Positions 477-55,719 of a stretch of 64,000 bases of DNA are shown in pieces. The translations under genes and the position numbers were made by a program. Position 1 is the first letter of the stretch, and the number at the start of each line of letters is the position of its first letter. The DNA lies in contig JAKFBU010000023.1 in the NCBI GenBank assembly GCA_036676985.1, forward strand, positions 1-64,000. The letters are read 5' to 3'. Under the pieces are notes generated by a model that made no database searches, was not told the DNA's origin, and saw nothing but the letters and a program-made list of their open reading frames with translations. The stretch comes from Candidatus Sericytochromatia bacterium. GTDB taxonomy: Bacteria; Cyanobacteriota; Sericytochromatia; S15B-MN24; UBA4093.

Positions 477-2489
477 CTAATGATCGAAGAAGGTGTGCGG
501 GATCGCCTGGGCCCACCAGCCGGGCTGCATGGGCAGGCTCGTCGCCCAGTCCCGATCGAAGGCCTCGGCCGACAGGCGCTGGACCTGCTCGCGATCGTCG
601 ATGCCCACGCCCAGCTCGCGCGAGAAGGAGAAGGACTGGTTGTCCATGTTCTGGGAGCCCACGTAGGCCCATTCTCCGTCCACGGCCACGAACTTGGTGT
701 GGTTGGCCTCGCCTTCCTTCCCGTTGGTCGAGAAGTTCCGGAGCTCGATGTTCGCCCGCACCTTTTCCGGCAACCCGGCCATGAAGGAGAGCAACGCCCG
801 GTTGTTGGCGGCATCGACCGCGGCCCCGAAGAGCTGGTAGTCCATGGGGAGGTTGAGCTTGACCTTGACGCCCCGTTCGGCGGCCTCGCGGATGGCCTTC
901 AGTACCGAGTCGGCGTTGAGGTTGGGCGAGAGGATCTTGATCTCCCGGCGCGCGGCCGCCATGGCGGCGAGCAGCCCTTGGTCGGCGTCGTTGTGCTCGT
1001 AGTCCTGAGCGTAGAAGCTGAGCACCCCGCGCTTGCCGAGCATGGTCATGGGCACCGCGTCCGCCGGAGGCGGCGAGGTATCCCGCTCGTGGGCGGGCGG
1101 AGTGGCGTCCGCGTTGACGTGCTGGTTGGCGTGCTTCCAGGCGTCGTCGAAGTCCGCGAGCATGCGCTGCACCACCGGACCGCGGACCTTGATGAAGAGG
1201 TCCTTCTCCTTGGGATTGTCCACGTTGTCGCCGCCGAGGACCCCGATGCGCCCGTCGATGACGTACATCTTGGTGTGGTGGCCCCGGCGACTGACGAGCG
1301 GTCGGGCCGCGGCCACTTGCGCCTTGATGCCGTACTCCTCGAGGGCCTCGACGATGCCGGGCCGATCGACCACGATGTTGACGCGGAAGGCCGGGTTCTC
1401 GCGCTGCTTGGCGGCGAGCGTCTCCAGGAGCTCCTTGGCGGCCGGACTCTGGGAGTCGAAGATGTAGGTCTGGAAGGAGACCTCGTGCTGCGCCTCGTTC
1501 TTGATGAGCTCGCAGACCTTGTGGATGCCCTCGTCGTCGCCATCCGGCTCGTTGATCCAGATCTCGTCGATCTTGCCGGAGGTGACGGCCTGCCCTCGGT
1601 CCACGGTGCCGTTGTCGGTGCCCCAGACCGCCCGGTTCACGGCGGTGCCGATGGCCGATCGTCCCGGGGGGGCGTCGACACCGTGCTCGGCGATCTGCTG
1701 TAGGCGCGACTGTTCGGCTTTTTCCTCCGAGCGCCGGACGCCCTCCTTGATCTCGGCCAGGGTCGGCACGATGGAGGGGGCGGTGAGCAGGTTGGGCAGG
1801 ACCTCGCCGACGTTCATGAGCTGCTCGTAGTGGTGCTTGTCTCCGAACCGGTCGGCGGCCCGCAGGGCATGGTTGAGGTTGCGGATGGGGTGCATGAGGA
1901 GGCTCGCCGCATCGACGAACATCTGCTTGGCATCCCCGATGGGATGGTGCAGGAAGTGGACGAAGCGGTCCCACAGGCGCTCGAAGCCCTTGGAGAGACC
2001 GAACTTCAGGGCGTCGAAGTCATTGTGCAGCTCGGCGCCGATGGTCTTGAGGGTGCTGCCTTTCGCGTCTGCCAGGCGCCCCTCGAAGATCCGGAGCTGG
2101 GCCTTCTTGGCGAGGTCATCGTCGCTCGGCGCGGGGAGCCGCGGGGGGACGTAGTCGACGCCCAGTCCCGAGAGCTCGCGCACCGTCTCCTGGTACCGCG
2201 CGAGGGTCGCAGTGGCGAGCTCCTGGGCCTTGGCGGCGGCGGGCTCGTCGCCGATGTAGCGGGCGATCGCAAACTCCTGGGTAGCAATCGAGGAGGTGAC
2301 GACGGCCTTGTTGGCCTGAGTGACGAGCTCGGCCTTGCGCTGCTCGGTCTCGACCCCCGCCGCGCGCGCGCGCGCATCGACGGACGGTGTCCCCGTCTTC
2401 GGCGCCTCACTCGATTTGAGCTCGGCCGTGGGCTTCTTGGTCGTCAGGAATGGCAGCCGTGCCTCGTCCCGGCGTCGAATCTCCGCCAT
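477..2489 (-). CDS. Phospholipase D superfamily protein with long N-terminal extension
   Basis: Two HxKxxxxD motifs (HTKMYVID...GGDN; HTKFVAVD...GSQNMD). About 290 aa non-catalytic N-terminus with no TM helix or signal peptide. GAGGAG RBS. Confidence 0.85.
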   Translation of the reverse strand: MAEIRRRDEARLPFLTTKKPTAELKSSEAPKTGTPSVDARARAAGVETEQRKAELVTQANKAVVTSSIATQEFAIARYIGDEPAAAKAQELATATLARYQETVRELSGLGVDYVPPRLPAPSDDDLAKKAQLRIFEGRLADAKGSTLKTIGAELHNDFDALKFGLSKGFERLWDRFVHFLHHPIGDAKQMFVDAASLLMHPIRNLNHALRAADRFGDKHHYEQLMNVGEVLPNLLTAPSIVPTLAEIKEGVRRSEEKAEQSRLQQIAEHGVDAPPGRSAIGTAVNRAVWGTDNGTVDRGQAVTSGKIDEIWINEPDGDDEGIHKVCELIKNEAQHEVSFQTYIFDSQSPAAKELLETLAAKQRENPAFRVNIVVDRPGIVEALEEYGIKAQVAAARPLVSRRGHHTKMYVIDGRIGVLGGDNVDNPKEKDLFIKVRGPVVQRMLADFDDAWKHANQHVNADATPPAHERDTSPPPADAVPMTMLGKRGVLSFYAQDYEHNDADQGLLAAMAAARREIKILSPNLNADSVLKAIREAAERGVKVKLNLPMDYQLFGAAVDAANNRALLSFMAGLPEKVRANIELRNFSTNGKEGEANHTKFVAVDGEWAYVGSQNMDNQSFSFSRELGVGIDDREQVQRLSAEAFDRDWATSLPMQPGWWAQAIPHTFFDH

Positions 2490-2565
2490 CGGTCCCCCGC
2501 TCCTCGGTGGTCATCCCTACATGGGGTATATACCCTGCCCGGCGAGTGTTGCCTCGTCCGAAGCG

Positions 2566-4119
2566 CTAGGGGGATCCGGCCGCCTCGACCAGCACCGATG
2601 CCGTGGCCGCATAGCGCGGATCGTCGTAGGCCGAGACGGTGACGACGACCTCCCCGGGGGCGGCCCCCGGGTACACGGAGATCTTGCCGATGTTGGGGTG
2701 AGTCTCGGTGCCCCAGTCGTCCTCGAACGTCACCCGTTCCGCGTCGCTGCTCGCGAAGTCCAGGTAGCGCGAGGCAATCCAGTCCGGATTGCCGTCGTCG
2801 GAGGTATGGAAGGTGATGCTGACGGTCGCCGTCGAGCGGGACTCGTCCCAGGGATCCTCCGGCGGCGGCGGCTGGAGGCGGAACGAGGTCGGCTCCATGG
2901 TCACGCCGTAGATCTCGAAGACGTGTACCAGGACGTCGTCGAAGAGGGTCCCGCTCGAGGCCTTGACCAACGTGTCCCCGTTGCTCGTTGGCGTGACCAG
3001 GCCGTTGGTGACCGTCAGGGAGTTGCCCTCCTCCACGGACCAGGTGACGACCGGGTTCTCGATGGGTTGGCCCTCGGTATCGGCGGCCTCGACCTCGAGT
3101 TGCTTGGTCTGGTCGCGGCGGACCTGGGTCGCTCCGCGGAACTTCGGGGTGATGGCGAGATTGGCAACGACCCGCAGGCGAGTCGGGTTGCTCTGGATGC
3201 CCCCGATGGTCACGAGCACGTCCCCCGAGCGTGCATTTTCAGGGACCTTGAAGCGGATCGTCCGATCGTCCACGCGGGTCGGCGCCGTCACGACGGACCC
3301 TCCCATGGCGACCTGCAGCGTTTCCAGGGTGGAGGCCCCGAAGTGCTCGCCCTGGATGGTCACCACCGCCCCCGGGCCCGCGTGGGGCGGGTTCAAGGCC
3401 GCAATGACGGGCGGCGTCAGCGTCATGACGACGTCTGGGGTCGTCACGGTCTGGTTCGGCTTGACCTCGACGTCGGCCAGATGGCCCTTGCCGAAGGCCG
3501 TGCCCGGCTTTTCCGCGGCCAGGTTGAACGTCCCCGCGGCGACGTTGGAGAGGGTGAAGCGTCCGGCCGCATCGGCCTTGGCCAGGTAGGAAGAGCCCGG
3601 GATGTAGACCTCGACGCCCTGGTAGCTCACGCCGGCCACCTCGTCTTTGAGGCGCACGGAGCCCTTGAGGTGGCCCGTCGGCTGAAGCGTTAGGCTCCCG
3701 AGGTCCGTAGCCCGCTCCTGCAGGGTGGCGATGTCGCGCTTGAAGACCTTCATGGCCTCGGAGTACACGGCCTCGAGGTTCAGCGCGCCCTCCGGCAGCG
3801 AGGTTAGGGTGAAGCGCCCCTGGGCGTCCGTCACGGCCTCGACGCTCGTGGCCTGGACCCGACGCCCCTGGTACCCCGCCGCCGCTTGCTGCAGGGGAGC
3901 GACGGTCGTCAGGGGCGCCACGGTTGCGAGATAGGCCTTGACGTTGACGCCCTGTGCTGGCAGCCCATCCGGCTGAAGGATGGTGCCCGTGATCGATCCG
4001 GCCGGAGCCTGGCTGGCCGCCTGGTTTCCGGTCGGGCGGTTCGAGACGCCCATCAAGAGGGCGGGATCGCATCCGACCAATAACAGGGCGATCAGGAGCA
4101 AGGGCAATAAACGACGCAT
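2566..4119 (-). CDS. Lipoprotein with carboxypeptidase-regulatory-like beta-sandwich, IPT/TIG and Ig-like domains
   Basis: MRRLLPLLLIALLLVG-C lipobox. GxITGxI...TDAxGRF domains and TIG pattern (P.IAALNP..AGPGAVVTIQGEHFG). Start placed at ATG 4119 after GGGAGA. Confidence 0.8.
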   Translation of the reverse strand: MRRLLPLLLIALLLVGCDPALLMGVSNRPTGNQAASQAPAGSITGTILQPDGLPAQGVNVKAYLATVAPLTTVAPLQQAAAGYQGRRVQATSVEAVTDAQGRFTLTSLPEGALNLEAVYSEAMKVFKRDIATLQERATDLGSLTLQPTGHLKGSVRLKDEVAGVSYQGVEVYIPGSSYLAKADAAGRFTLSNVAAGTFNLAAEKPGTAFGKGHLADVEVKPNQTVTTPDVVMTLTPPVIAALNPPHAGPGAVVTIQGEHFGASTLETLQVAMGGSVVTAPTRVDDRTIRFKVPENARSGDVLVTIGGIQSNPTRLRVVANLAITPKFRGATQVRRDQTKQLEVEAADTEGQPIENPVVTWSVEEGNSLTVTNGLVTPTSNGDTLVKASSGTLFDDVLVHVFEIYGVTMEPTSFRLQPPPPEDPWDESRSTATVSITFHTSDDGNPDWIASRYLDFASSDAERVTFEDDWGTETHPNIGKISVYPGAAPGEVVVTVSAYDDPRYAATASVLVEAAGSP

Positions 4120-4224
4120 GGACTTCTCCCGGGACATGGCTGGCGCGCGGCTCGGGGTGGGGTTGCCCCCTCACCAAGACCATCTCCTTCATACCCTCGT
4201 CTGCCAGTCTCGTGTCGGCCGGGC

Positions 4225-4258
4225 AAAAAAGGTCGAGCCCGCCGGTCGGCGGGCTCGA
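4225..4258 (-). terminator. Intrinsic terminator downstream of the lipoprotein operon
   Basis: TCGAGCCCGCC-GGTC-GGCGGGCTCGA hairpin with an A6 tract on + (U-tract on -). Confidence 0.75.
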
Positions 4259-4278
4259 ACGATGTACCGGCCCCCGGG

Positions 4279-6561
4279 TTAATCCAGCTTCCGGATGGCG
4301 TTGTTGGTGTACTCCGTGACGTAGAGCGATCCGTCGCTCGCCCGGACGATGCCGTCCGGAGCCCGCAGATCGGCCTTGGATCCGATGCCGTCCTTGAGGC
4401 TGGTACCGGATTGCGTGCTACCGCCGGCAATCGTCAGCACCTCGCCTTGCGGGAAGATCTTGTGCACCACGTTCGCGCTCTCCTCGGTCACGAACAGGGT
4501 CCCGTCCGGCGCCACGGCGATGCCCATCGGGTTCCACAGCGACTTCGTCAAGAGCATGGTGTCGACCAGGGCGCCCGGAGTGATGCGCCGGATCTTGCCG
4601 TCGTTCATCTGGGTCACGAACAGCGTCCCGTTCTGGTCGATGGTCAGGCCCGTCGGATAAACGAACTTCGCCCCCGCGTTCGGATCGGATCCCATGCCGT
4701 CGCGGCTGATGGGGGGCGCGCCAGGCGGGTGCGGGCTGCCGGCGTAGGACGTCACGCCACCGTTGGTATCAATCTTGCGAATGGTGCTGTTCGCCTGGTC
4801 GGCGACGAAGACGTTGCGGCTGGCGTCCACCGCGATGCCCTTCGGGGTGTTGAACTTCGCGCTCGCCCCCGGACCGTTCTGCATGCCTTGCTCGCCGGTG
4901 CCGGCGAGTACCGACCAGCTGCCAGACGTACCGCCACCCAAGAGTTCGATTCGGTAGACCTTGTGGTTGGCGTCATCGGTGGCATAGAGCCAATTCGTGG
5001 AGCTCACGGCGTCGTAATAGTAGGCAAGCCCAAACGGACGGAAGCCGGTAATCCCGCTCAGCGCAAGCGTCGAAACCGCTCCGCCGGAGATGCGGCGGAT
5101 CAGGCCGTTGTCGTGGTCCGCCACGTAGAGGTTGCCCGAGCGGTCGAAGGCCATGCCCTGCGGGTGCCTAAAGCGCGCAGCGAGGGCATCTCCGTCCGTC
5201 GTTCCCTCCTCGCCGTCGCCCGCAAAGGTCGTGACGGTGTAGTTGTCGAGCTGGATGTTCACGGTTTCCTGCTGCGCGGAGTCGGCGGCCGACGAGACGG
5301 TCACCTTGATCGTCCCCTTCGAGCCGAAGTCCGTGGCGGTCACCCGGCCCGTGACGTCGACCGATGCGCTGGCGTCGGCCGAGAAGTCGACGAAGCTGTT
5401 GGTCGCGCCGTCGCTGAACAAGTTTTCGGCGCTGATGCGGAAGAAGGCGCCGCCCTTACCGCCCAGCGTCGGCTGGCCGAAGATGGGGCGCACCGAGACC
5501 GAAACGGCCTCGGGGACGATCTTGAGGGGTGCGCTGAGCATCGAGCCGAATTGCGCCGTCACGCTGGTACCCGCCGCCCGGTACGACCCTCCGGCCGTGA
5601 AGACGCCACTCTCATCCACCGTCCCGGCCGACTCGTCGGACGAGCGCCAGGTCGGGCTGGGCGGAGTGCCGAAGTACCCAATGTTTTCCCCGGTCTTGGT
5701 CTCCCAGTTGACCGAGTAAAAGAGCTGCTCTTCCTTGCCCAGGATGACGATCTGAGTGCCGGACGGGGACGGATCCCAGAACTTCTTGTTCTCGGTGACG
5801 GTGACGGTCTTGGGGACCCAGAAGACGAAGTTGTCTTCGGAGCTCACGCCGTCGGACTTGAGGACCACCTTGCCGGTGGGCGTCCCAGGGGGCACCGTGA
5901 CCTTGACCGAGGTGCTGCTCGTGGGCACCGCGCCCGTGATATAGCCGTTGAAATACACCTGAACGGGGGTGCCGTCGGTCGCGAAGTTGGTGCCCGTGAT
6001 GGTCACCTCGTCACCCGGCACCCCGGTATTCGTGCTCAGGGCCGTGATGGTCGGGACGAAGAGCGGCGTGAGCGACACGCCCGCGCTGGTCTTGCGGCTG
6101 CGCGTGATGTTGACGTTGGCCGTCCCCCGCGCGGTGGGCTCGGCACCTTCGGGCACAGGTGCGGCCTCGCGGTAGGCGAGAACCTCGACGCTCAGGTTGT
6201 TGCCCGCCTTGAGCGGGACGTTGGCCGTCGCCGTCGACGCTCCTACCTGGCGCGTCACGGTGGCCGAGGCCACTTCGGTGCTGCCGCTCGACACCTTGAT
6301 GACCAGGGTGTTGGTGCTGGTCGGGATCAAGGCCGTCTGGTAGCCGGTGGGGCGCTCGGGCCAGCGAACGGTGAGCGACAGGGTCCCGTACTCGCTCACA
6401 GGGGTTTGACCCTGCTCCGCAACGGGCTCCGGCTGGGCAGCCGAGACCGCCGAAGCGCCCGTGGTCGCCACGGGCAGCGAAACCAGGCTGCCGGGACGGA
6501 CGGTGCAGCCCACCATGCCGAACGAGACGGCCGCGACCAGCAATACTCGATGACGCATCAT
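4279..6561 (-). CDS. Lipoprotein with IPT/TIG, Ig-like and C-terminal NHL-repeat beta-propeller
   Basis: MVG-C lipobox, TIG domain, repeated FxxPxGxAxDxxGNxYVAD NHL units. Confidence 0.85.
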   Translation of the reverse strand: MMRHRVLLVAAVSFGMVGCTVRPGSLVSLPVATTGASAVSAAQPEPVAEQGQTPVSEYGTLSLTVRWPERPTGYQTALIPTSTNTLVIKVSSGSTEVASATVTRQVGASTATANVPLKAGNNLSVEVLAYREAAPVPEGAEPTARGTANVNITRSRKTSAGVSLTPLFVPTITALSTNTGVPGDEVTITGTNFATDGTPVQVYFNGYITGAVPTSSTSVKVTVPPGTPTGKVVLKSDGVSSEDNFVFWVPKTVTVTENKKFWDPSPSGTQIVILGKEEQLFYSVNWETKTGENIGYFGTPPSPTWRSSDESAGTVDESGVFTAGGSYRAAGTSVTAQFGSMLSAPLKIVPEAVSVSVRPIFGQPTLGGKGGAFFRISAENLFSDGATNSFVDFSADASASVDVTGRVTATDFGSKGTIKVTVSSAADSAQQETVNIQLDNYTVTTFAGDGEEGTTDGDALAARFRHPQGMAFDRSGNLYVADHDNGLIRRISGGAVSTLALSGITGFRPFGLAYYYDAVSSTNWLYATDDANHKVYRIELLGGGTSGSWSVLAGTGEQGMQNGPGASAKFNTPKGIAVDASRNVFVADQANSTIRKIDTNGGVTSYAGSPHPPGAPPISRDGMGSDPNAGAKFVYPTGLTIDQNGTLFVTQMNDGKIRRITPGALVDTMLLTKSLWNPMGIAVAPDGTLFVTEESANVVHKIFPQGEVLTIAGGSTQSGTSLKDGIGSKADLRAPDGIVRASDGSLYVTEYTNNAIRKLD

Positions 6562-7941
6562 TTACTCAATCTCCAGCTCGAGGTCGCCCAGGACGGTGAC
6601 CGTGACCGAAGCCGTCGCCTTCTTGGACGGGTCGTCGACGGAAGTGGCCGTGATGACGACCGTCCCCTCGGACGCGCCCGCGACCGTCTTCACCAGGCCG
6701 TTCGAGACCGTGACCCGGCTCGGGTCGGAGCTCGACCATTCCACCCGCCCATCGAAGGGACCGGACATCTGGACGGTCGCCGTGAGCGTCTCGGACGTGA
6801 GGTAACCCGAATCGGGCTCGCCGGTCTCGGGCAGGGCGTTGAGGGTCAAGGCCGACTTGTTTAGCGTGACCCCGTCGATGCCGACCACCTTGACCTCGTA
6901 CTTGTTGCTCAGGTTGGTGCCGAAGCTCGCGGCGACGCTCGTCGTCGCGGCGGAGGTCGCCGCCACGAACCGGCCGCCCTCGTCGATGCTGCCCGCCGCC
7001 GGGTTGGAGCTCGTCCAGGCATACGCGGGGGGCGTGCCGTACTGGCCCACCGTCTCGCCGCTCTTGAGGGCCCAGGTGGGCTCGGCCGCGAACTGGAGGT
7101 CCTCTCCGTAGCGGACCATCCGTCGGGAGCTGCCGCCCAGCGTCAGGTCGTCCCAGGCGGGCACGGGAGCCGTGATGGTGAGGTTCGAGAGGACCCAGAA
7201 GGTCGACGTCGAGGTCGACTCGACGCCGTCCGCCTTGACCACCACGTTGCCCGTGGTCGCGCCAACCGGCACCACGGCCGTCAGCGAGGTCTCGCTGGTG
7301 CGCGTGACGGTCGTGGCAGCGACCCCGTTGAAGGTCACCTGGACGGGCACGTCGCCCGAGCCGAACTTCGTGCCGGTGACGGTGACGGTCTGGCCGACCT
7401 TGCCGAGGTTCGAGTCGAAGCCCGTGACGGTCGGAACGTTGAGGGGCGCGAGCGTCACCGCGAGAGGACTGACCTTGGAGCGAACCACGCTGGTAGTCCC
7501 CGTGCCCTGGGCGATCGGCACGGCCGTCGCGACGTCGGGGGTGCTCTCGCGGTAGGCCTTGACCTCGACCGACAGGTTCGAGGCGGCCTCCACGCGAATG
7601 CTCTTCGAGACCGTGGTGGCTCCGGACGACCGGCTGACGACCACGGGCCCGGCGACCGTCGAGGCGCCCTGCTTGACCCAGACGGCGATCGCGTTGGTGG
7701 TGGCGGGCAGGAGTGCGACCTGGTAGCCCGGCACGGGCTCCGGCCACCGGATGGTCAGGTTCAGCCAGCCGTAATCCGCCTGGGGGGTCTCGGCGCCGGA
7801 CACGACGAGAGCGGGCTCGGTGTCCGTGACGACCTGGGCCGTGCCCTTCGGGGCCTCGGTCACGACGGGAACCGTCTTGAGGGTGCAGCCCACGAGCCCG
7901 ACCGAGAGCGCGAGGGTCAAAGCGCGGCTCAGTGCGCCCAT
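6562..7941 (-). CDS. Lipoprotein with IPT/TIG and Big_2-like Ig domains
   Basis: LVG-C lipobox. N-domain paralogous to 4279-6561. WSSSDPSRVTVSNGLV Big_2 motif. Abuts both neighbours (operon). Confidence 0.85.
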   Translation of the reverse strand: MGALSRALTLALSVGLVGCTLKTVPVVTEAPKGTAQVVTDTEPALVVSGAETPQADYGWLNLTIRWPEPVPGYQVALLPATTNAIAVWVKQGASTVAGPVVVSRSSGATTVSKSIRVEAASNLSVEVKAYRESTPDVATAVPIAQGTGTTSVVRSKVSPLAVTLAPLNVPTVTGFDSNLGKVGQTVTVTGTKFGSGDVPVQVTFNGVAATTVTRTSETSLTAVVPVGATTGNVVVKADGVESTSTSTFWVLSNLTITAPVPAWDDLTLGGSSRRMVRYGEDLQFAAEPTWALKSGETVGQYGTPPAYAWTSSNPAAGSIDEGGRFVAATSAATTSVAASFGTNLSNKYEVKVVGIDGVTLNKSALTLNALPETGEPDSGYLTSETLTATVQMSGPFDGRVEWSSSDPSRVTVSNGLVKTVAGASEGTVVITATSVDDPSKKATASVTVTVLGDLELEIE

Positions 7942-7942
7942 G

Positions 7943-9493
7943 CTAGTTCACCTCCAGGTTGATGTCGCCGTCGATGCTGACCGTGACGGTCGCCTCGGCC
8001 TTGAACAAGGGATCGTCCACCGAGGTCGCGGTGATGGTGGCCGTGCCCTTGGCGGCGCCGGGCTTGGTCTGGACCAGGCCGTTGACGACCGTGACCATGT
8101 CGGTGTTGGAGCTCTGCCATGACACCTTGCGATTGGTGACCGACGGATTGTTGGTCAGGACCGTCGCCGCGAGCGTCGTGCTCGTCTCGAACCCCGCGTC
8201 GGGCTCGCCGGCATCGGGCTTGGCGTTGAGGGTGATGGCCGTCCGGTCGAGCGTCACGCCCGTCACCTCGAAGACCCGGACCGTTCCGAGGGCCGACACC
8301 GTGCCGCTGAACAGCCGGACCGTGGCGTCACCGGGCTTGACCGCCGTCATTTTGTTGCCGTCGAGCTCGATGCTGTCACCGCTCGACAGCTCCCACTTGA
8401 GGTTGGGCGAGAAGACCAGGGCCCCGCCCGTATCCTTGGCGCTCGGCGTGCTCTCGTAGGATTTCCCGAGGAAGAGGTCGATGCTGGCCGTCGGCCAGTT
8501 CAGGAAGACGTCCTTGACGACCTTGAACCCCACCGCGTTGCTCTGGTTGCCACCGACGGTCACGAACACGTTGCCCGTCTGGGCGCCCACCGGAACCGTG
8601 ACCTTGATGGCCGTATCGCTCACGCGCTGGAAGGTGGTGGCCGACGACCCCGTGAAGCTGATCTGCAACTGCTCGCCCTTGGTCGCCCCGAAATTCTCTC
8701 CCGTGAGGGTGAGCTCGCTGCCGGGCCCCCCGTTGGCGGGCGTCACCTGGGTGATCTTGGGCAGCGACAGGGTGAGGGCCAGGTTCACGGTGGTGGTGCC
8801 CTTGGGGACGACCGCCACGCCGGTCGCAATGGCGCGGCCCAGTCCCTGCTTGGCGCCCACGACGTTGAAGCTGCCGGGCGCCACGTTCGAAATCGTGTAG
8901 TTGCCCGCGCTGTCCGCCTTGGCCACGTACGAGGAGCCCGGGATGAAGACGTCCACGCCCTCGAAATCCGTGACCGAGGTGTTGTCCTTCGAGGAGACCT
9001 TGCCGGAGATGGTGCCGGTCGGCTGCAGCGTCAGGCTGCCCGTGTCGGCGGGGCTGGTCTTGCTGACCACCAGATCGCTCTTGAAGACCTTGAAGGCATC
9101 CGACAGCACCGCCTCGATGTTGACCTTGCCCTCGAGGTCGGGGAAGGCAAAGGCGCCGTTGGCATCCGTCGTGACCTCGCCGCCGGTGGCGGCGATCCTC
9201 CGGGTACCGTAGCCGGCCGCAGCCTGCTGCAGGGGGGCCACGGTGGTCAGCGGAGCGACCGTCGTGAGGTCCGAGGGGACCGGGAAGGCCCGGACCTTCA
9301 CGTTCGCGGCGGGCTTGCCCTCCGCCGACATGATGATCCCCTTGAGGGTCCCCTGCTTGGGGGCGGTCGTGGTGTCCGGGTCCGAATCCGCGACGTTGCC
9401 GCCCGGCTTCTGCAAGCCGGCCAGCAAGGCCGGGTCGCACGCCGTGACGAGCATCGATAGGCTCAGGAGTAGTCCTGCAAGAGCTCGGCGCAT
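7943..9493 (-). CDS. Lipoprotein with carboxypeptidase-regulatory-like, IPT/TIG and Big_2 domains (paralog of 2566-4119)
   Basis: MRRALAGLLLSLSMLVTA-C lipobox, ATG 9493 after GAGGGG, WQSSNTDMVTVVNGLV motif. Confidence 0.85.
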   Translation of the reverse strand: MRRALAGLLLSLSMLVTACDPALLAGLQKPGGNVADSDPDTTTAPKQGTLKGIIMSAEGKPAANVKVRAFPVPSDLTTVAPLTTVAPLQQAAAGYGTRRIAATGGEVTTDANGAFAFPDLEGKVNIEAVLSDAFKVFKSDLVVSKTSPADTGSLTLQPTGTISGKVSSKDNTSVTDFEGVDVFIPGSSYVAKADSAGNYTISNVAPGSFNVVGAKQGLGRAIATGVAVVPKGTTTVNLALTLSLPKITQVTPANGGPGSELTLTGENFGATKGEQLQISFTGSSATTFQRVSDTAIKVTVPVGAQTGNVFVTVGGNQSNAVGFKVVKDVFLNWPTASIDLFLGKSYESTPSAKDTGGALVFSPNLKWELSSGDSIELDGNKMTAVKPGDATVRLFSGTVSALGTVRVFEVTGVTLDRTAITLNAKPDAGEPDAGFETSTTLAATVLTNNPSVTNRKVSWQSSNTDMVTVVNGLVQTKPGAAKGTATITATSVDDPLFKAEATVTVSIDGDINLEVN

Positions 9494-9642
9494 ATCCCCT
9501 CTCAGTTGGTGACGTGAGGCTGTCTCTTGCCTGTTATTCCCCCCTGCGACCCACACTAACCCCGAACGGTCACACATCATGTGAGAGTTTGCTCACAGGT
9601 CGGGCGCTTGCCAGTCGGGCCCCAAACTGGCAGAATGCGGGC

Positions 9643-10762: not shown

Positions 10763-13048
10763 ATGTCCGGAACCGGACCCTTGAACAACAACGCCGCCGC
10801 CGCGGCAGCCGCCGAAGCCGCCCGACGCCGGGCCGCCGAAGAGGCGCGGCGCCGTGCCGAGGAGGAGGCCCGCAAACGCGCCGAGGAAGCGGCGCGCCGC
10901 CGCGCGGCTGAAGAGGCGGCTCGCAAGAAGGCCGCCGAGGAGGCCGCCCGCAAGAAGGCCGAAGAAGCCCAGCGCGAGAAGATGGCCGAGAAGGCCGCCG
11001 AGCGTCGCGAGGCCTACGCCGAGAAGGCCGAGCAGAAGGCGGAACTGAAGGCCGAGCAGCCGACCAATCCGATGCAGGCCAAGATGGAGCGCATCATGCG
11101 CGAGGAGACTCAGCGCGACTCCAAGCCCCTGTCGCGCGCCGACCAGGCCTCCAACAGCCTGGCAGGGCGGATCGGCGCGCACGAGTCGGCGGTCAACAAG
11201 AAGATCGACGGGGCGGACAAGGTCCCCGGCGAGGCCAAGGACGCCGTGCGCGACCTCAACAAGCAGGTCACCGACCAGGCCCGCGATGTCGTCAAGCAGG
11301 CCGACGGCCAGGTCGCCCAGATCAACAAGCTCGCCGAGCAGGCGAGCGCCGGCAAGACCCCCGAGCAGAAGAAGGTCATCATGGACGAGGCCGACAAGCA
11401 GTCGGCCGCCATCTACCAGGAAGCGGAGCGCCACGTCGACAAGGTCCTCGACCAGACCTATGAGAAGTCCGGCGAGATCCTCGAGAAGGCCGAAGAGAAG
11501 GACAACGGCGGCGGCGTCGGCGGCTGGCTCAAGGATCGGGTCGACGACGTCAAGGACCTCGCGAGCGATGCCTGGAACGCCGCCACGGACTTCGTGGGCG
11601 ACGTGACGGGTGCGGCCGGGGACGCCGCGTCGGCCGTGGGCGACTTCGCCTCGGACAAGGTCGCGGAATTCGGCAACTACGTCGCCGACCAGGCCTATGA
11701 CAAGGTCATCGACCCCACGCTCGACAAGAGCGCGCTGGGCGAGGACAACGAGTACAACAACGAGAAGACCGGAGCCGTCGGCGACCTCATCACCAACCGC
11801 CTGGAGCCCGGCGAGAGCGTCTTCTTGAAGCTCGAGGCCGATGCCCAGATCGGCGGCGTGCAGGTCGGCGCCGGCGCGCAGGTCCAGATCAAGCGCGTCC
11901 AGATGACCGACGAGAACGGCAATACGGTCACCGAGCCCAAGGATGCCAAGGGCCGCCCGCCCACGGAGCTCGAGGTCAGCCTCCTGGCGGACGCCAACGT
12001 GGGCGTCGGCTTCTCGGCCTCGGCCGGCACCGGCCCCAAGGGCAAGGAGGGCGACGAGCGGACGCTCGGAGCGTCCGCCGAGGCGGGCGTCTCGGCGCAG
12101 GCCGGCATCTCCGGCCAGGCGGAGTTCAAGTTCCGCTTCGACCCCAACTCCCAGAAGGACATGGACGACATGACGGGGATCTTCAAGACCGCGGCCAAGA
12201 CCGGCCTCGAGTCGGCCATCCCCGGCATCGGAACGGCGCTTGCGGCCTCCAACGTCCCGGATCTCGCCAAGGACGCCGCCGCCTTCGGCAGCCACCTGAC
12301 GGAGATTCGCGGCGAGGTCGGCGCCTATGCCAACGCCTCGGCGAGCGCCAGCGTCTCGGCAGGCGCGCTGGCCAAGGAGCCGGCGGATGGCGCGGAAGCG
12401 GCTGCAGGGGCCGAAGGAGCGGAGAAGCCATCCATGCTCCAGAACCTCAAGAACAAGGGGCTCGACGCGGCCCAGCTGCAGGCCGAGCTCGGGGCGTCCG
12501 TCGGTGCGGAGCTCAAGATGGGCATCAGCAAGGACTTCCGAACCGGGGACACGACTCTGTACTTCACGGCCTCGGCCCAGGCGCAGGCGTCGGCCTCCGC
12601 CGGCAAGTTTGGCGAGGGCGTCGGCGGCACCGCGAACCGGACCATCGCCGTCAAGGTCGACCAGAGCGGCGAAATCGAGGGCATCCAGGTCAAGGACACC
12701 ACCACCAAGAAGACCTTCGCGGGCTTCGGCAGCGAGGATGTCCAGGGCCAGCGGATCGACGACGAAGCCTTGTCGCTCCTGTCGGGTGAGGACAAGGTCA
12801 CCGTGACCCGGAGCCTCAAGCCCGAGGCGGTGGATGCCTTCAAGCAGGAGTTCAAGGACAACCAGGTGGCCGCCGTCGCTGGCCTGGGCCTGGACGCCGT
12901 GCGGATGGACGCCAAGAAGATGGAGGTCACCAACATCACGGGCACCACCACCACCAAGACCGAGCTTGGCATCGACGCCAAGATCGCCCAGCTCAAGCTC
13001 ACCTTGGGCCACTCGCAGGACGTGGACCTGACGGCCGGGAAGCGGTAA
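10763..13048 (+). CDS. Hypothetical 761-aa protein (E/R/K/A single-alpha-helix N-terminus, amphipathic middle, Gly/Ala/Ser beta-rich C-terminus)
   Basis: Long ORF with host-like codon usage, AAGGGGGG RBS, no signal peptide. Confidence 0.8.
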   Translation: MSGTGPLNNNAAAAAAAEAARRRAAEEARRRAEEEARKRAEEAARRRAAEEAARKKAAEEAARKKAEEAQREKMAEKAAERREAYAEKAEQKAELKAEQPTNPMQAKMERIMREETQRDSKPLSRADQASNSLAGRIGAHESAVNKKIDGADKVPGEAKDAVRDLNKQVTDQARDVVKQADGQVAQINKLAEQASAGKTPEQKKVIMDEADKQSAAIYQEAERHVDKVLDQTYEKSGEILEKAEEKDNGGGVGGWLKDRVDDVKDLASDAWNAATDFVGDVTGAAGDAASAVGDFASDKVAEFGNYVADQAYDKVIDPTLDKSALGEDNEYNNEKTGAVGDLITNRLEPGESVFLKLEADAQIGGVQVGAGAQVQIKRVQMTDENGNTVTEPKDAKGRPPTELEVSLLADANVGVGFSASAGTGPKGKEGDERTLGASAEAGVSAQAGISGQAEFKFRFDPNSQKDMDDMTGIFKTAAKTGLESAIPGIGTALAASNVPDLAKDAAAFGSHLTEIRGEVGAYANASASASVSAGALAKEPADGAEAAAGAEGAEKPSMLQNLKNKGLDAAQLQAELGASVGAELKMGISKDFRTGDTTLYFTASAQAQASASAGKFGEGVGGTANRTIAVKVDQSGEIEGIQVKDTTTKKTFAGFGSEDVQGQRIDDEALSLLSGEDKVTVTRSLKPEAVDAFKQEFKDNQVAAVAGLGLDAVRMDAKKMEVTNITGTTTTKTELGIDAKIAQLKLTLGHSQDVDLTAGKR

Positions 13049-13057
13049 AGGAACGCC

Positions 13058-13474
13058 ATGAACATCCAAGTGGACCTGATTTCAGGGGCTCGGACCTACG
13101 AGTTGGACCTCGAGGAGGTGCCGTTCCAGTCGCGCCTCGGCGCCAACGATGGCAGGCTCGAGATCGTCAGCGATCGCCACGGCCGGATCACCGGCGCCAA
13201 GGTGGAGTTCGTCGCTCCCAAGCGCTTCTTGCTCGATGAGATCGACCGCATCGCCCAGGAGGCGAGCTGGACGATCCCCATCGACGAGATCCGCGCGGCG
13301 CCGACGCACCAGTTCGTGGTGGACATGGTGCTCAAGCCCCAGTACCTCGCGGAGCTCGAGAGCCTCGACGTCCAGGACCCGAACCTGGATGTCAAGGTCG
13401 GGTGGTACCCGGCCCTGCTGGACGACCGCCACTACAGCATCGAGAACATCCGGATCGAAGAAGCGCCCCAGTAG
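13058..13474 (+). CDS. Hypothetical acidic 138-aa protein
   Basis: AAGGA RBS overlaps the upstream stop. Host-like codon usage. Confidence 0.75.
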   Translation: MNIQVDLISGARTYELDLEEVPFQSRLGANDGRLEIVSDRHGRITGAKVEFVAPKRFLLDEIDRIAQEASWTIPIDEIRAAPTHQFVVDMVLKPQYLAELESLDVQDPNLDVKVGWYPALLDDRHYSIENIRIEEAPQ

Positions 13475-13503: not shown

Positions 13504-16158
13504 TTAGCCCGTGGGCGCCTCGCCCTGGGTGCCGGGATAGGGGCTGACGGCCTCCTCGGCGGGCCGCGGCGCGCGGAAGAACGTGAAGCGCCCGTCGGCG
13601 TAGTCGACGCGGATGACGTCGCCCTGCTGGAACTCCTCTTCGAGCAAGAGGCGGCTGATGGGCGTCTCGATCTCCCGCTGGATGGCCCGGCGCAAGGGAC
13701 GTGCTCCGTACTCCGGCTCGAAGCCGCGCTCGGCAATCGCGACCTTGGCACCCGCGGACACGTCCAGGGACAGCCCCTGGGCGTGCACCTTGCGGCGCGT
13801 TTCCTCGAGCATGAGGTCGACGATCTGCTGGATCTGCTCCTGGTTGAGCGGGTGGAAGACGATGATCTCGTCGATGCGGTTCAGGAACTCGGGTCGGAAG
13901 CTCGCGCGCAGGGCCTGGAGCGCCTCGTCCTTGATGCTCTCCCAGGGTTCCCCGGCCTTCTCGCGCTCGAAGATCCGGAGGGCGCCCACGTTGGAGGTCA
14001 TAATGACGACGGTGTTCTTGAAGCTCACGGTCCGGCCCTTGTTGTCCGTCAGGCGGCCGTCGTCGAGGATCTGCAGCAGCGTGTTGAAGACGTCCGGGTG
14101 GGCCTTTTCGATCTCGTCGAACAGCACCACCGAGTAGGGCTTGCGCCGCACGGCCTCGGTGAGCTGGCCCGCCTCCTCGTAACCCACATAGCCCGGAGGG
14201 GCCCCCACCAGGCGGCTGACGGTGTGCTTTTCCTGGAACTCGCTCATGTCGAGCCGGATCATGGCGTCCTCGTCGTTGAAGAGGTACTCCGCCAGGGACT
14301 TGGCGAGCTCGGTCTTGCCCACGCCCGTCGGCCCCAGGAAGATGAACGAGCCGATGGGGCGGTTGGGGTCCTTCATGCCGGTGCGCGAGCGGCGCACGGC
14401 CTCGGCGACGGCGACGACCGCGTCCTCCTGGCCGATGACCCGCTGGTGCAGGACCTCCTCCATCTTGAGGAGGCGCTCTTTCTCCTCCTGCAACAGCTTC
14501 TCGGCCGGAATGCCCGTCCAATCCCCGATCACCTTGGCGATATCCTCGCTGGTGACCTTCGGGGTCTCGCCGCCCTTCTCGCTCTTCCAGCCCTTGCGCA
14601 CCTTGTCGAGGCGCTCCTTGATCACGTCCTCTTCGGCCTTGAGGCGCTTGGCCCGTTCGAAGTCCTCCCGGAAGGCGGCCTCGTCCTTGTCGCGCGTGAG
14701 GCGCACCAGCCGATCCTCGAGATCCGAGACCTCCGCCGGCTCGCGGCGGCTGCGCAGGTGCTTCATGGAGGCGGCCTCGTCCACCAGGTCGATGGCCTTG
14801 TCCGGCAGGAAGCGATCCGTCACGTAGCGATCCGACATCTCGGCGGCCGAGACCAGGGCCTCGTCGGTGATCTCGACGCCGTGGTGCGCCTCGTAGAGGT
14901 CCACCAGCCCGCGCAGGATCGCGATGGTCTGGTCCACGTTGGGCTCCTGGACCAGCACCGGCTGGAAGCGGCGCTCGAGGGCGGCGTCCTTCTCGATGTG
15001 CTTGCGGTACTCGTCGAGCGTGGTGGCACCTACCGTGCGGAGCTCGCCCCGGGCGAGGGCGGGCTTGAGCATGTTGGAGGCGTCCATGGAGCCCTCCGCG
15101 GCCCCCGCGCCCACCACCGTGTGCAGCTCGTCGATGAAGAGGATGATCTGCCCCTCCTGCTCCTTGACCTCGTCCATCAGGCCCTTGAGGCGCTCCTCGA
15201 ACTCGCCGCGGTACTTGGTGCCCGCGACCAGGGAGCCGAGGTCCAGGGAGAGGACGCGCTTGTCCTTGAGGATGTCCGGCACGTCTCCCGCGATGATGGC
15301 CTGTGCCAGGCCGTCGGCGATCGCCGTCTTGCCGACGCCGGGCTCGCCGATGAGCACCGGGTTGTTCTTGGTGCGGCGGCTGAGGATGCGGACCACCCGA
15401 TCGATCTCGTCGTCGCGCCCGATGACCGGATCGAGCTTGCCGCTCTTCGCCAGCTCGGTGAGGTCGCGGGTGTACTTGGACAGGTTCGGGGTCGGCTTGC
15501 CTCCGCGCCCGGACTGCGGAGCGCCCGTGCAGCGGGGCATCGGGGCGGCCTCGGTCCGGGGCATGCCGCGCTCCATGCTCTCTTGCAGGATCTGCGAGGC
15601 GAGACTCTCGCCTTCCTCCAGGAGTCCCGAGAGGAGGTGCTCCGGCCGGATGGTGAGCGTCCCGTCGAGGAAGGCCGCGTCGCTCGCGAGGCGAATGGCG
15701 CGCTTGAGGCGGGGCGTCATGGCCACCTGGCCGGGCCGTTCGCCCTCCTGGGGCGGGAAGGCCTCCTCGATCCGGCCCCGCACGTCGTCCGGATCGAGCC
15801 CGAGACGGCCGGCCAGGGTCGTGCCCAGCGCCGGGTCTTGCAAAAGGGACAAGAGCAGGAACTCGCTCTCCAGGCGCGGGATGTTGCGCTCGGCCGCGTA
15901 CTCCGCCGCCGTCTGGAGGACGCGGCGCGCATCGTCGGACAGGCGGTCCAGAAGGTTGTCCGACGAGGTCGGACGGATGCCGAAGACACGCTCGAGCATG
16001 TTGTCGAGGCCGAAGCCTCCCCACTCCTGCCCACCACCGCGTTCAGCCTTGAAGTGGCTCGCGCAGTGGGCGCAAAGATGCACCTCCTGGCGCTCACCGT
16101 TGACCGATTGCGTGAAATGGAAAGTCGCTGGACGTTGTTGGCAGTTGGCGCACAGCAT
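13504..16158 (-). CDS. Clp/Hsp100 AAA+ ATPase with N-terminal Zn finger, Clp_N-like domain and UVR-type middle domain (ClpE/ClpG/ClpC-like)
   Basis: CxxC...CxxC N-terminus. Walker A GEPGVGKT and GPTGVGKT, Walker B LFIDELH and [34 protein letters not shown]. Confidence 0.92.
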
Positions 16159-54869: not shown

Positions 54870-54993
54870 CGTTGCGGAGACCTCTTCACGGTAACCTCAC
54901 ACCGCAATCCGGGATTTCTACGGACCCTTGACAGGCGGGTTCTGGCCTACGCTTGGGCATGGAAAGCTGGAACGATGCGACAGGTGGGTGTCC

Positions 54994-55719
54994 ATGTCCG
55001 TACGATGGCGTATCGGCACACTCTTGGCCCTGGCCGGCTTGATCGGCCTCTCCGCATGCAGCGATCCCGATGAGGCCACGGGCATCGTCCGGCCCAAGGC
55101 CTCGCCGTCGGCGGGCGCGAGCCCGGGCGGCCTCACCGGAGGCGTCGGCGGCCCCACCACGACCGAGCCCCTCGTCCAGTACGTCCGCCTGGACGTCGCC
55201 ACCCTCTCCCTCAATGTCCCGCCCGCCGCGGGCCTCGTGTCCGCCGGCTTGCCCTCCACGGCGAGCCTCAATCCCCGTGCCCTGCTCACCGACGGCCAGC
55301 TCGATCCGGTCGGCGTGGATTGGCAGATCCAGGATCCCAGCCGCCTGACGGTCGATGCGGCGGGCGTGGTCAGCCTCCGCGCCGATGCCGCGGTGGGCGT
55401 CACGACGGTCACGGCCGTCTCCAAGCGCAACCCGACCCTCAAGGCGCAGGCCGCCATCACCATCACGCGTGACGGCATCCTCGAGGTCAAGGGGCTGGAG
55501 CCGGGCGGGTCCGGCTACGTCCGGGCCAACGTCACCCGTAACGGGACCTACGTCGCCAACCAGGTCATCGATGAACCGCCGCGCATCCGGTTACCCGGAG
55601 GTGTCTCCTATGACGTGCAGTTGCAACGCGTGTCGGGCAACGAGACTACGGTCGTCAAAAACTTCGCCGACCTGCTGATCCCACCGAACGCCGTCGCCAT
55701 CGCCACCGTGAGCCCCTAG
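54994..55719 (+). CDS. Lipoprotein with Ig-like domain
   Basis: LSA-C lipobox, W...DPSRLTVDAAGVV Big_2-like segment. Confidence 0.75.
   Translation: MSVRWRIGTLLALAGLIGLSACSDPDEATGIVRPKASPSAGASPGGLTGGVGGPTTTEPLVQYVRLDVATLSLNVPPAAGLVSAGLPSTASLNPRALLTDGQLDPVGVDWQIQDPSRLTVDAAGVVSLRADAAVGVTTVTAVSKRNPTLKAQAAITITRDGILEVKGLEPGGSGYVRANVTRNGTYVANQVIDEPPRIRLPGGVSYDVQLQRVSGNETTVVKNFADLLIPPNAVAIATVSP

Follow-up and report, generated by a model that had tools for sequence, protein, structure and literature searches.

The window considered here, the whole stretch of DNA that was analysed, comprises 64,000 nucleotides (nt) from a Candidatus Sericytochromatia bacterium (GCA_036676985.1, contig JAKFBU010000023.1, positions 1-64,000 of the forward strand). 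It contains three co-directional, tightly packed lipoprotein genes on the (-) strand, designated A, B and C in their order, whose products probably make up an ordered chain linked by strand exchange, with A as the anchor, B as the adaptor and C as a tip bearing an NHL propeller. The genes and the element that follows them are:

7943..9493, (-) strand: gene A, 516 amino acids (aa), proposed lipid-anchored base (open reading frame (ORF) and translation)
6562..7941, (-) strand: gene B, 459 aa, proposed adaptor (ORF and translation, Pfam, orthologues, AlphaFold2)
4279..6561, (-) strand: gene C, 760 aa, proposed tip (ORF and translation)
4233..4258, (-) strand: terminator-like hairpin with an 11-bp stem (9 G-C pairs) and a T run, 21 nt past the stop codon of C

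A single nucleotide separates the stop codon of A from the start of B, and the stop codon of B directly abuts the start codon of C. Because the terminator-like hairpin lies 21 nt after C, the unit is A-B-C, the hairpin marking its end. No RNA is listed across window positions 4200-9600.

The product of A, whose length is counted from the start chosen in an earlier reading of this DNA (the original prediction), consists of a signal peptide, a lipobox with its cysteine at position 19, two CarboxypepD_reg-like domains (Pfam CarboxypepD_reg at residues 161-241), a TIG domain (245-319), an Ig domain, a Big_2 domain (440-493) and a C-terminal tail. B likewise has lipobox Cys19, followed by a linker, an N-terminal domain here called the Ndom, then TIG (170-245), Ig and Big_2 (383-442) domains and a tail. 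In C, lipobox Cys19 is followed by an Ndom, a TIG domain (170-234), two Ig-like domains and an NHL beta-propeller (TEN_NHL, E 6.4e-26; NHL, E 5e-21), with no tail; A has the tail and no Ndom. The Pfam scores (TIG 36.2 and Big_2 23.2 bits in A, TIG 27.1 and Big_2 26.7 in B, TIG 33.6 in C) lie above the curated cut-offs of 20.9 bits for TIG and 22.8 for Big_2, placing all three products among Big_2/TIG lipoproteins. The lipobox is a sequence pattern, and lipidation of A, B and C is predicted only from it. No Pfam family matches residues 54-170 of B or C.

The elements on which the proposed linkage depends are:

7432..7782, (-) strand: Ndom of B, residues 54-170, a predicted seven-strand transthyretin-like sandwich, proposed acceptor of the A tail
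7747..7770, (-) strand: N-strand of B, G58-R65 (GWLNLTIR), with the invariant W66-P67 next to it; putative counterpart of an anchor strand
6049..6399, (-) strand: Ndom of C, matched by the Ndom hidden Markov model (HMM) at residues 57-167 (E 5.3e-29)
6364..6387, (-) strand: N-strand of C, G59-R66
7946..7969, (-) strand: tail of A, the last eight residues, GDINLEVN, proposed donor strand
6565..6588, (-) strand: tail of B, GDLELEIE, proposed donor strand for C

Over 455 residues, B and C share 37% identity (E 3e-73). After Cys19 and a linker, the N-termini of both read Y-G-x-L-x-L-T-[IV]-R-W-P and then G-Y-Q-x-A-L-[IL]-P, bearing out the claim of the original prediction that the two share a domain with an opening strand and a GYQ loop. 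B is also 39% identical to A, over 307 residues, in an alignment that reaches both C-termini. In the AlphaFold2 model of the B monomer (mean predicted local distance difference test, pLDDT, 80.1), residues 57-65 form a strand and the last Ig strand spans residues 441-449. Since the Big_2 match ends at 442 and this last strand at 449, the tail lies outside the Ig domain; an extra C-terminal strand after a complete Ig domain in A and B, and its absence from C, which does have the N-strand, had also been anticipated correctly. Residues 453-459 are modelled without secondary structure at pLDDT below 50, a low confidence that is in itself no proof of a free tail.

Nine full-length orthologues of B, 53-61% identical to it, allowed conservation to be followed in both elements. 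In and just after the N-strand, G58, W59, N61, L62, R65, W66 and P67 are invariant in all nine. All 10 sequences keep G452, L454, L456 and I458 of the tail, with variation at the residues in between. Such invariance of alternate residues, in a tail that remains unplaced in the B monomer, fits a partner acting in trans. Tail and N-strand share the register G-x-[LVI]-x-[LVI]-x-[IVL]-x, a correspondence absent from the original prediction. Where the N-strand closes this register with R or K, the tail most often has E, Q, D, R or N. Of the 19 N-strands of this genome, 15 have R or K in front of W-P and the others Q or H; in relatives this position includes Q, A, L, N, I, T and Y.

The resemblance was quantified with a position-specific scoring matrix (PSSM) built from 118 database N-strands, against which every 7-residue window of a protein was scored. 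The proteins were picked by position: for each of 24 Ndom genes the closest ORF upstream on the same strand was taken, which existed for 23. The terminal window fell within the top 2% of its own protein in 15 of the 23 upstream neighbours, as against 2.2% of 1500 control ORFs (binomial p 6e-20). It ranks 4th of 538 in A and 4th of 452 in B; with a first version of the matrix, the best window in B was its own N-strand and the second best its tail. Tails also co-vary with the N-strands of their neighbours: when BLOSUM scores of cognate tail/N-strand pairs were compared with those of shuffled partners, all 46 pairs gave 11.96 against 9.99 +/- 0.60 (p 0.001), the 16 pairs from this genome p 0.026 and the 30 from relatives p 0.016.

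Gene order follows the same rule. In a crude gene set, the tail pattern was found on the upstream same-strand neighbour of 11 of 19 Ndom genes and of 18 of 3595 other genes (Fisher p 7e-20). A tail gene precedes an Ndom gene at about 16 loci in this genome, and locus maps of 13 contigs (C23, C59, C15, C28, C33, C26, C30, C74, C3, C56, C6, C39 and C4, the last with two loci) place the two 0-25 nt apart. Proteins with both an Ndom and a tail always occupy the middle of a series in these maps; there are three genes in series at C39 and more at both C4 loci. Many donors are small lipoproteins in which a lipobox and a linker rich in Pro and Thr precede one or two Big_2 domains, with the tail at the end. 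Other genomes, where 46 Ndom matches were surveyed (one place being represented twice), contributed 30 distinct donor-acceptor pairs in six genomes, other genera included. Over all loci the chains range from two to five genes, the four-to-five-gene series occurring in genome G025, in which contig C49 carries a donor, then three proteins with Ndom and tail, then a tail-less propeller protein. The rule that the tail is present on base and middle subunits and absent from the tip holds for A/B/C and for the G025 chains. At the locus corresponding to this window in G046 and G043, two genomes from a different genus within the family, B is missing and an A-like gene, with the tail G-S-L-[ED]-L-V-I-E, lies directly before the Ndom-propeller gene. 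The observation made at this locus is thereby confirmed well beyond the window.

Whether the tail of A could occupy the place of the N-strand was addressed with a complex model of the B Ndom from W66 on, that is, with its N-strand removed, and the last 108 residues of A (alignments A3, of 20 Ndom paralogues, and A4). Three runs scored 0.80, 0.81 and 0.80, as against 0.00 for the best of three controls; the score mark applied is reached by 116 of 157 solved complexes and by two of 215 mismatched pairs. The runs agreed in 100% of contacts, with a partner pLDDT of at least 92. In the model, the A tail (98-108) lies on strand D (56-66) and strand G (99-111), that is, between strands 4 and 7, and its side chains reach residues 32, 34, 36 and 70-76 in the sheet facing it. 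The residue pairs with the lowest error run antiparallel to D (residue sum 165) and parallel to G. For the N-strand itself, a register sum of 69 with strand D follows from couplings 4-65 and 9-34 (below) and the equal lengths of strands 4-12 and 57-65. Taking the two sums together, G101 of the tail would occupy the position of N-strand residue G5, and the full tail/N-strand correspondence in the modelled register is the same alignment as that given by the motif. The model thus supports binding and suggests that the tail can specifically replace the N-strand, filling the vacated groove as the original prediction had proposed for a C-terminal strand.

Some paralogues combine both elements in one polypeptide. 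These are:

54928..55719, (+) strand: cis-fused relative with Big_2, a tail-like strand and then an Ndom-like domain of about 80 aa
contig C42 of this genome (G000), 2448-3179 (L017:449-1180), and contig C55, 21946-22713 (L018): other cis-fused small lipoproteins

An HMM (Cdom) covers residues 83-187 of the 54928..55719 protein, the tail positions included. The extension in the three cis-fused paralogues is homologous to strands B-G of the Ndom (hhalign 93.4%, E 2.5e-7, 69 columns), which makes the tail strand of these proteins strand 1 of an Ndom-like domain. By this sequence comparison, the cis-fused form indicates the place at which the free tail would bind.

The Ndom is a large undescribed domain family. 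A profile seeded on B orthologues and iterated on the genome gave 40 matches at the fourth round. Against 1.84 billion representative proteins it returned 1667 matches at E <=0.001 and 335 at E <=1e-10; 134 of the 147 best new proteins have the lipobox pattern and 119 the x7-[RKQH]-W-P strand. Among 200 sampled genomes of the phylum, the Ndom occurs in 45 of the 46 from Sericytochromatia, often in many copies per genome, and in none of the 154 from other classes. One of ten homologue clusters looked up was named, as Candidatus Sericytochromatia / Tanganyikabacteria. No Pfam match was obtained for any of 20 members even at E up to 10, and no NCBIfam family covers the domain.

The AlphaFold2 model of the B Ndom, made with 20 paralogues, has a pLDDT of 88.9, a predicted template modelling score of 0.80 and seven strands (local residues 4-12, 31-38, 41-50, 57-65, 67-77, 91-99 and 104-110), the N-strand being strand 1. 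Mean-field coupling analysis of 210 Ndom sequences places the N-strand antiparallel to strand D (local 4-65, rank 5) and links it to strand B (9-34, rank 4). With the Ndom alone Foldseek gave no match at E <=0.001, the profile matched only a cohesin-containing protein (E 0.016) among PDB sequences, and the best ESM Atlas score, 0.81, is below the level that makes a match more than a lead. The comparison with Fim/Mfa folds proposed earlier, without a match in Foldseek, gave matches with VIA-align over 48,161 chains, where Mfa3 scored Z 9.0, Mfa2 7.7 and FimA prepilins 7.5-7.9, the pilin alignments beginning at pilin residues 30-40. The top match there was the pilotin ExsB (2yjl; Z 10.6, root-mean-square deviation 2.6, 95 residues). 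The pilotin AspS (5wec) scored 8.8-9.1, the Parabacteroides 'fimbrial assembly protein' BDI_3522 8.9 and several Bacteroides 'putative cell adhesion' proteins 7.8-8.7. CBM20 and GH2 sandwich domains tie with the pilins at Z of about 8, a value that may reflect a common arrangement. As modelled, the Ndom is transthyretin-like, in the fold class of type V pilin N-terminal domains, a likeness of fold that need not mean homology.

These data are probably best accounted for by the chain outlined at the start. Each acceptor (B, C) would begin with a complete seven-strand Ndom whose first strand follows a lipid-anchored linker, and each donor (A, B) would end in a free eight-residue strand with the register G-x-L-x-L-x-I. 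In the Ndom of each acceptor, the tail of the upstream product would come to lie between strands 4 and 7, in the place of the N-strand. The resulting chain would run from a base with a lipid anchor through an adaptor to a tip carrying the NHL propeller. The N-strand may either be cut after the usually basic residue before W-P or merely be displaced, and the chain might face the periplasm or the outside. The same two-part code would operate at the roughly 16 loci and across Sericytochromatia, with varied cargo hung on small anchor lipoproteins. The motifs and their conservation, the order of the genes, the mimicry of the N-strand by the tail, the cis-fused form and the score of the complex model are observed; that the strands bind inside living cells and that the N-strand vacates its slot, we infer. 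The mechanism originally proposed is in this way partly supported. The roles of A as base, B as both acceptor and donor and C as tail-less tip have computational support. The further claim that B is a self-polymerising stalk is not supported, given the two-gene form without B in sister genera and the longer chains made of different genes in series. A gene-ordered hetero-chain is the best-supported form, over a pilus with a repeating stalk.

Several observations weigh against such a chain. AlphaFold2 seats the Ndom's own N-strand confidently (pLDDT 94 for the first 10-residue block), so that something must remove or displace it, and no protease gene that might do so is present at the five paralogous loci examined, where the neighbours encode an alpha-amylase, a LysM protein and unknown proteins. 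A search for the gingipain family Peptidase_C25 (PF01364) came back empty in this genome and in the control genomes alike, and so carries no weight. The basic residue before W-P is incompletely kept, as seen from the 15 of 19 own-genome strands and from the substitutions in relatives. The N-strand was omitted from the modelled acceptor, and the groove was thus open by design; the coupling between N-strand and strand G (local 6-109) mismatches the register of the complex model, this analysis having only 210 sequences. An N-strand-like end was not found by PSSM in 8 of the 23 upstream neighbours, and no upstream donor was found for the Ndom genes C1_144849 and C39_108424, two on C38, and those on C52 and C41. 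Cognate similarity has a modest effect, and loci that share an origin by duplication do not count independently. Finally, one cargo argues against a surface fibre: at G000 C56 70157-72100 (L013:3158-5101) the domain fused to an Ndom is that of a di-haem cytochrome c peroxidase (CCP_MauG, E 3.9e-48), an enzyme that is usually periplasmic. As a side observation, this cargo hints that chains may face the periplasm.

Three other explanations were weighed. In one, the tails bind nothing in trans: they would be first strands that remain from lost domains, and duplication of two-gene cassettes of paralogous multi-Ig lipoproteins would account for the gene order. All four paralogous lipoproteins of the window (A, B, C and a further gene, D, described below) fit this view, as do the complete AlphaFold2 Ndom, which needs no extra strand, and the cis-fused paralogues, which show that a tail could arise through truncation; the paralogy of the loci also makes counts across them non-independent. 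A useless stub, however, would not keep four alternate residues invariant at 53-61% overall identity. The tail moreover persists at the exact C-terminus where Ndoms are only 15-44% identical to that of B, it co-varies with the N-strand of the neighbour, and the complex model scored 0.80 where controls scored 0.00. On balance we regard leftover strands as unlikely. Less likely still is that the tail is a C-terminal beta-signal for shared machinery, be it lipoprotein export, outer-membrane insertion or quality control. Its exact C-terminal position and amphipathic beta pattern would suit such a role, and some members end in Y or F, a terminal aromatic residue recalling the signals of outer-membrane proteins; but the last residue of most tails is E, Q, D, N or R and not aromatic. 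A general signal would also sit poorly with a tail found almost only on genes immediately upstream of Ndom genes, with its mimicry of and co-variation with the neighbour's N-strand, and with the same strand lying internally in the cis-fused forms.

The remaining alternative is a true type V-like surface pilus, with A as anchor, C as tip adhesin and B as a stalk that polymerises after Arg/Lys-specific cleavage. Acceptor and donor do lie together on B, pilin N-terminal domains belong to the nearest structural neighbours of the Ndom (Z 7.5-9.0), and the modelled slot between strands 4 and 7 corresponds to that of Mfa1, whose last donor strand likewise is C-terminal and consists of nine residues (PMC13655056). 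The R or K before W-P in 15 of 19 own-genome N-strands could mark the cleavage site, but this putative site is incompletely conserved. The orthologous locus of G046 and G043 has no B, the longer chains consist of distinct genes in series, which points to a defined hetero-oligomer, and the B tail resembles the N-strand of C at least as closely as its own. Together with the failure to find, with Pfam, any sequence relation to FimA/Mfa, these points make a pilus of this kind about as improbable, in our judgement, as the beta-signal, and the gene-ordered chain of A, B and C is the reading retained below.

Type V pili are termed unique to Bacteroidia in a 2026 paper, according to which type V pilins are made as lipoproteins; in sheet 1 of the pilin N-terminal domain, as in Mfa1, the N-terminal anchor strand is beta1 and is accompanied by beta4 and beta7; C-terminal donor strands occur on base and stalk pilins and not on tips; and once the beta1-beta2 loop has been cleaved after Arg, the donor can take the place of the anchor strand (PMC13655056). 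The present proteins resemble those of type V pili (P. gingivalis FimA/FimB, Mfa1/Mfa2/Mfa3-5) in being predicted lipoprotein precursors, in having a post-anchor first strand within a transthyretin-like N-terminal domain, in bearing a C-terminal donor on base and middle subunits and none on the tip, and, in the complex model, in a donor that lies between strands 4 and 7. They differ in showing no sequence relation detectable by Pfam search. Whereas type V pilins have two transthyretin-like domains, there is here one, followed by TIG/Ig/Big_2 domains or a propeller, the following domains being positively identified (TIG 170-245 and Big_2 383-442 in B; TIG and NHL propeller in C). The type V donor folds back on its own C-terminal domain, whereas the donor here is proposed to be a free eight-residue tail, left unplaced by AlphaFold2. 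Gene order would set the chains, and neither a conserved stalk gene nor a stalk homopolymer is evident. Release in type V pili is described as protease-driven, whereas a protease for the Sericytochromatia chains is not known, and the type V systems described are those of Bacteroidia, the present one being in Sericytochromatia. The likeness to type V pili originally claimed is supported for the fold class of the Ndom (Z 7.5-9.0), whereas membership of A, B and C in the FimA/Mfa family finds no support in the sequence searches or in the TIG/Ig/Big_2 architecture.

Chaperone-usher pili are similar in that a strand of one subunit completes or occupies a sheet of the next. There the acceptor is short of a strand, an N-terminal extension serves as donor, and a chaperone and an usher are required; the Ndom, in contrast, is complete with seven strands and the donor is C-terminal, and no chaperone or usher Pfam family was found among neighbouring genes at the loci examined. 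TasA fibres, archaeal threads, bundling pili and cannulae also use strand donation without a dedicated chaperone; they are described as homopolymers of secreted non-lipoproteins, unlike the heteromeric lipoprotein series proposed here. The pilotins ExsB and AspS, the best structural matches of the Ndom, are single-domain secretin binders; no secretin gene occurs in the present loci, and we know of no strand exchange in these pilotins. With multi-Ig proteins such as LigA, invasin and the S-layer protein SbsC, A, B and C share a body made of a string of Ig-like domains, and whole-protein Foldseek of B found these (SbsC 1.6e-11, LigA 5e-9, invasin 8e-9); the 50 matches listed against the PDB were all generic multi-Ig proteins, with no fimbrial protein among them. 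No code joining a tail to an N-domain and no gene-ordered chain is described for LigA, invasin or SbsC.

It is conceivable, as a tentative extension of the chain proposed for A, B and C, that the principle of the type V pilus has been independently built, or very distantly inherited, in Sericytochromatia as a plug-and-socket code in which gene order sets the chains. A first strand tethered to lipid would leave its transthyretin-like socket, and the C-terminal strand of the product encoded immediately upstream would enter it. Dozens of lipoproteins per genome might on that extension be chained, among them NHL propellers, Ig arrays and the di-haem peroxidase. No description of such a system was found in the literature searched, the coverage of which excludes subscription journals. 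If true, lipoprotein strand exchange would exist in a second lineage with unrelated sequences, and the principle would be more general. The system would allow one to ask what drives the release of the anchor strand, it would provide a simple testable rule for which proteins pair, and a short, orthogonal, gene-encoded pair of tail and socket could serve as a protein-assembly tool.

Past the terminator-like hairpin lies a further gene on the same strand:

2566..4137, (-) strand: gene D, a paralogue of A (39% identity) without tail and without Ndom

D, which the original prediction does not mention, has CarboxypepD_reg-like domains and TIG by Pfam and, being located beyond the hairpin, is probably outside the chain. 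A signal peptide and a lipobox cysteine are present in all four products, A, B, C and D. In E. coli, the residue after the lipobox cysteine decides inner-membrane retention. This residue is Asp in A and D (window 9437-9439 and 4069-4071, (-) strand) and in the anchor encoded on C59; in Ndom proteins and small donors it is Thr, Ser, Ala or Pro. Anchor-type proteins also contain short tandem peptide repeats, inserted in the first CarboxypepD_reg-like region (window ~9190-9290, (-) strand, in A and ~3880-3930, (-) strand, in D). The units are T-T-V-A-P-L, repeated, followed by Q-Q-A-A-A-G-Y, and repeats of the same type occur in the anchor-type proteins of G000 contigs C59 (30658-32232) and C4 (131122-132858; L-Q-Q-A-A-G, four times).

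A third family of lipoproteins, whose members are 39-50% identical, is encoded in G000 at C30 100852-101826, C74 9308-10210 and C1 143860-144852. At C30 and C74 the gene sits upstream of the donor gene, and its products have strand-like ends with a terminal aromatic residue (N-V-D-L-F and N-A-G-L-Y); at C1 it sits downstream of the Ndom gene. A pattern scan of the genome contigs turned up three loci that were set aside as sharing Big_2 similarity only; at L003 the product has 1003 aa and multiple Big_2 domains, its C-terminal part being unrelated.

Elsewhere in the window, the ORF at 477-2489 ((-) strand), downstream of D on the same strand, encodes a 670-aa protein with two PLD-like domains (PLDc_2, E 3e-27). 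On the (+) strand, 10763-13048 encodes 761 aa with a repetitive N-terminus rich in Ala, Glu, Arg and Lys and, 9 nt later, 13058-13474 encodes 138 aa; neither product has a Pfam match. The 884-aa product of 13504-16158 ((-) strand) resembles Clp/Hsp100-type AAA+ chaperones, as judged by eye from the translation, and opens with a C-x-x-C ... C-x-x-C segment.

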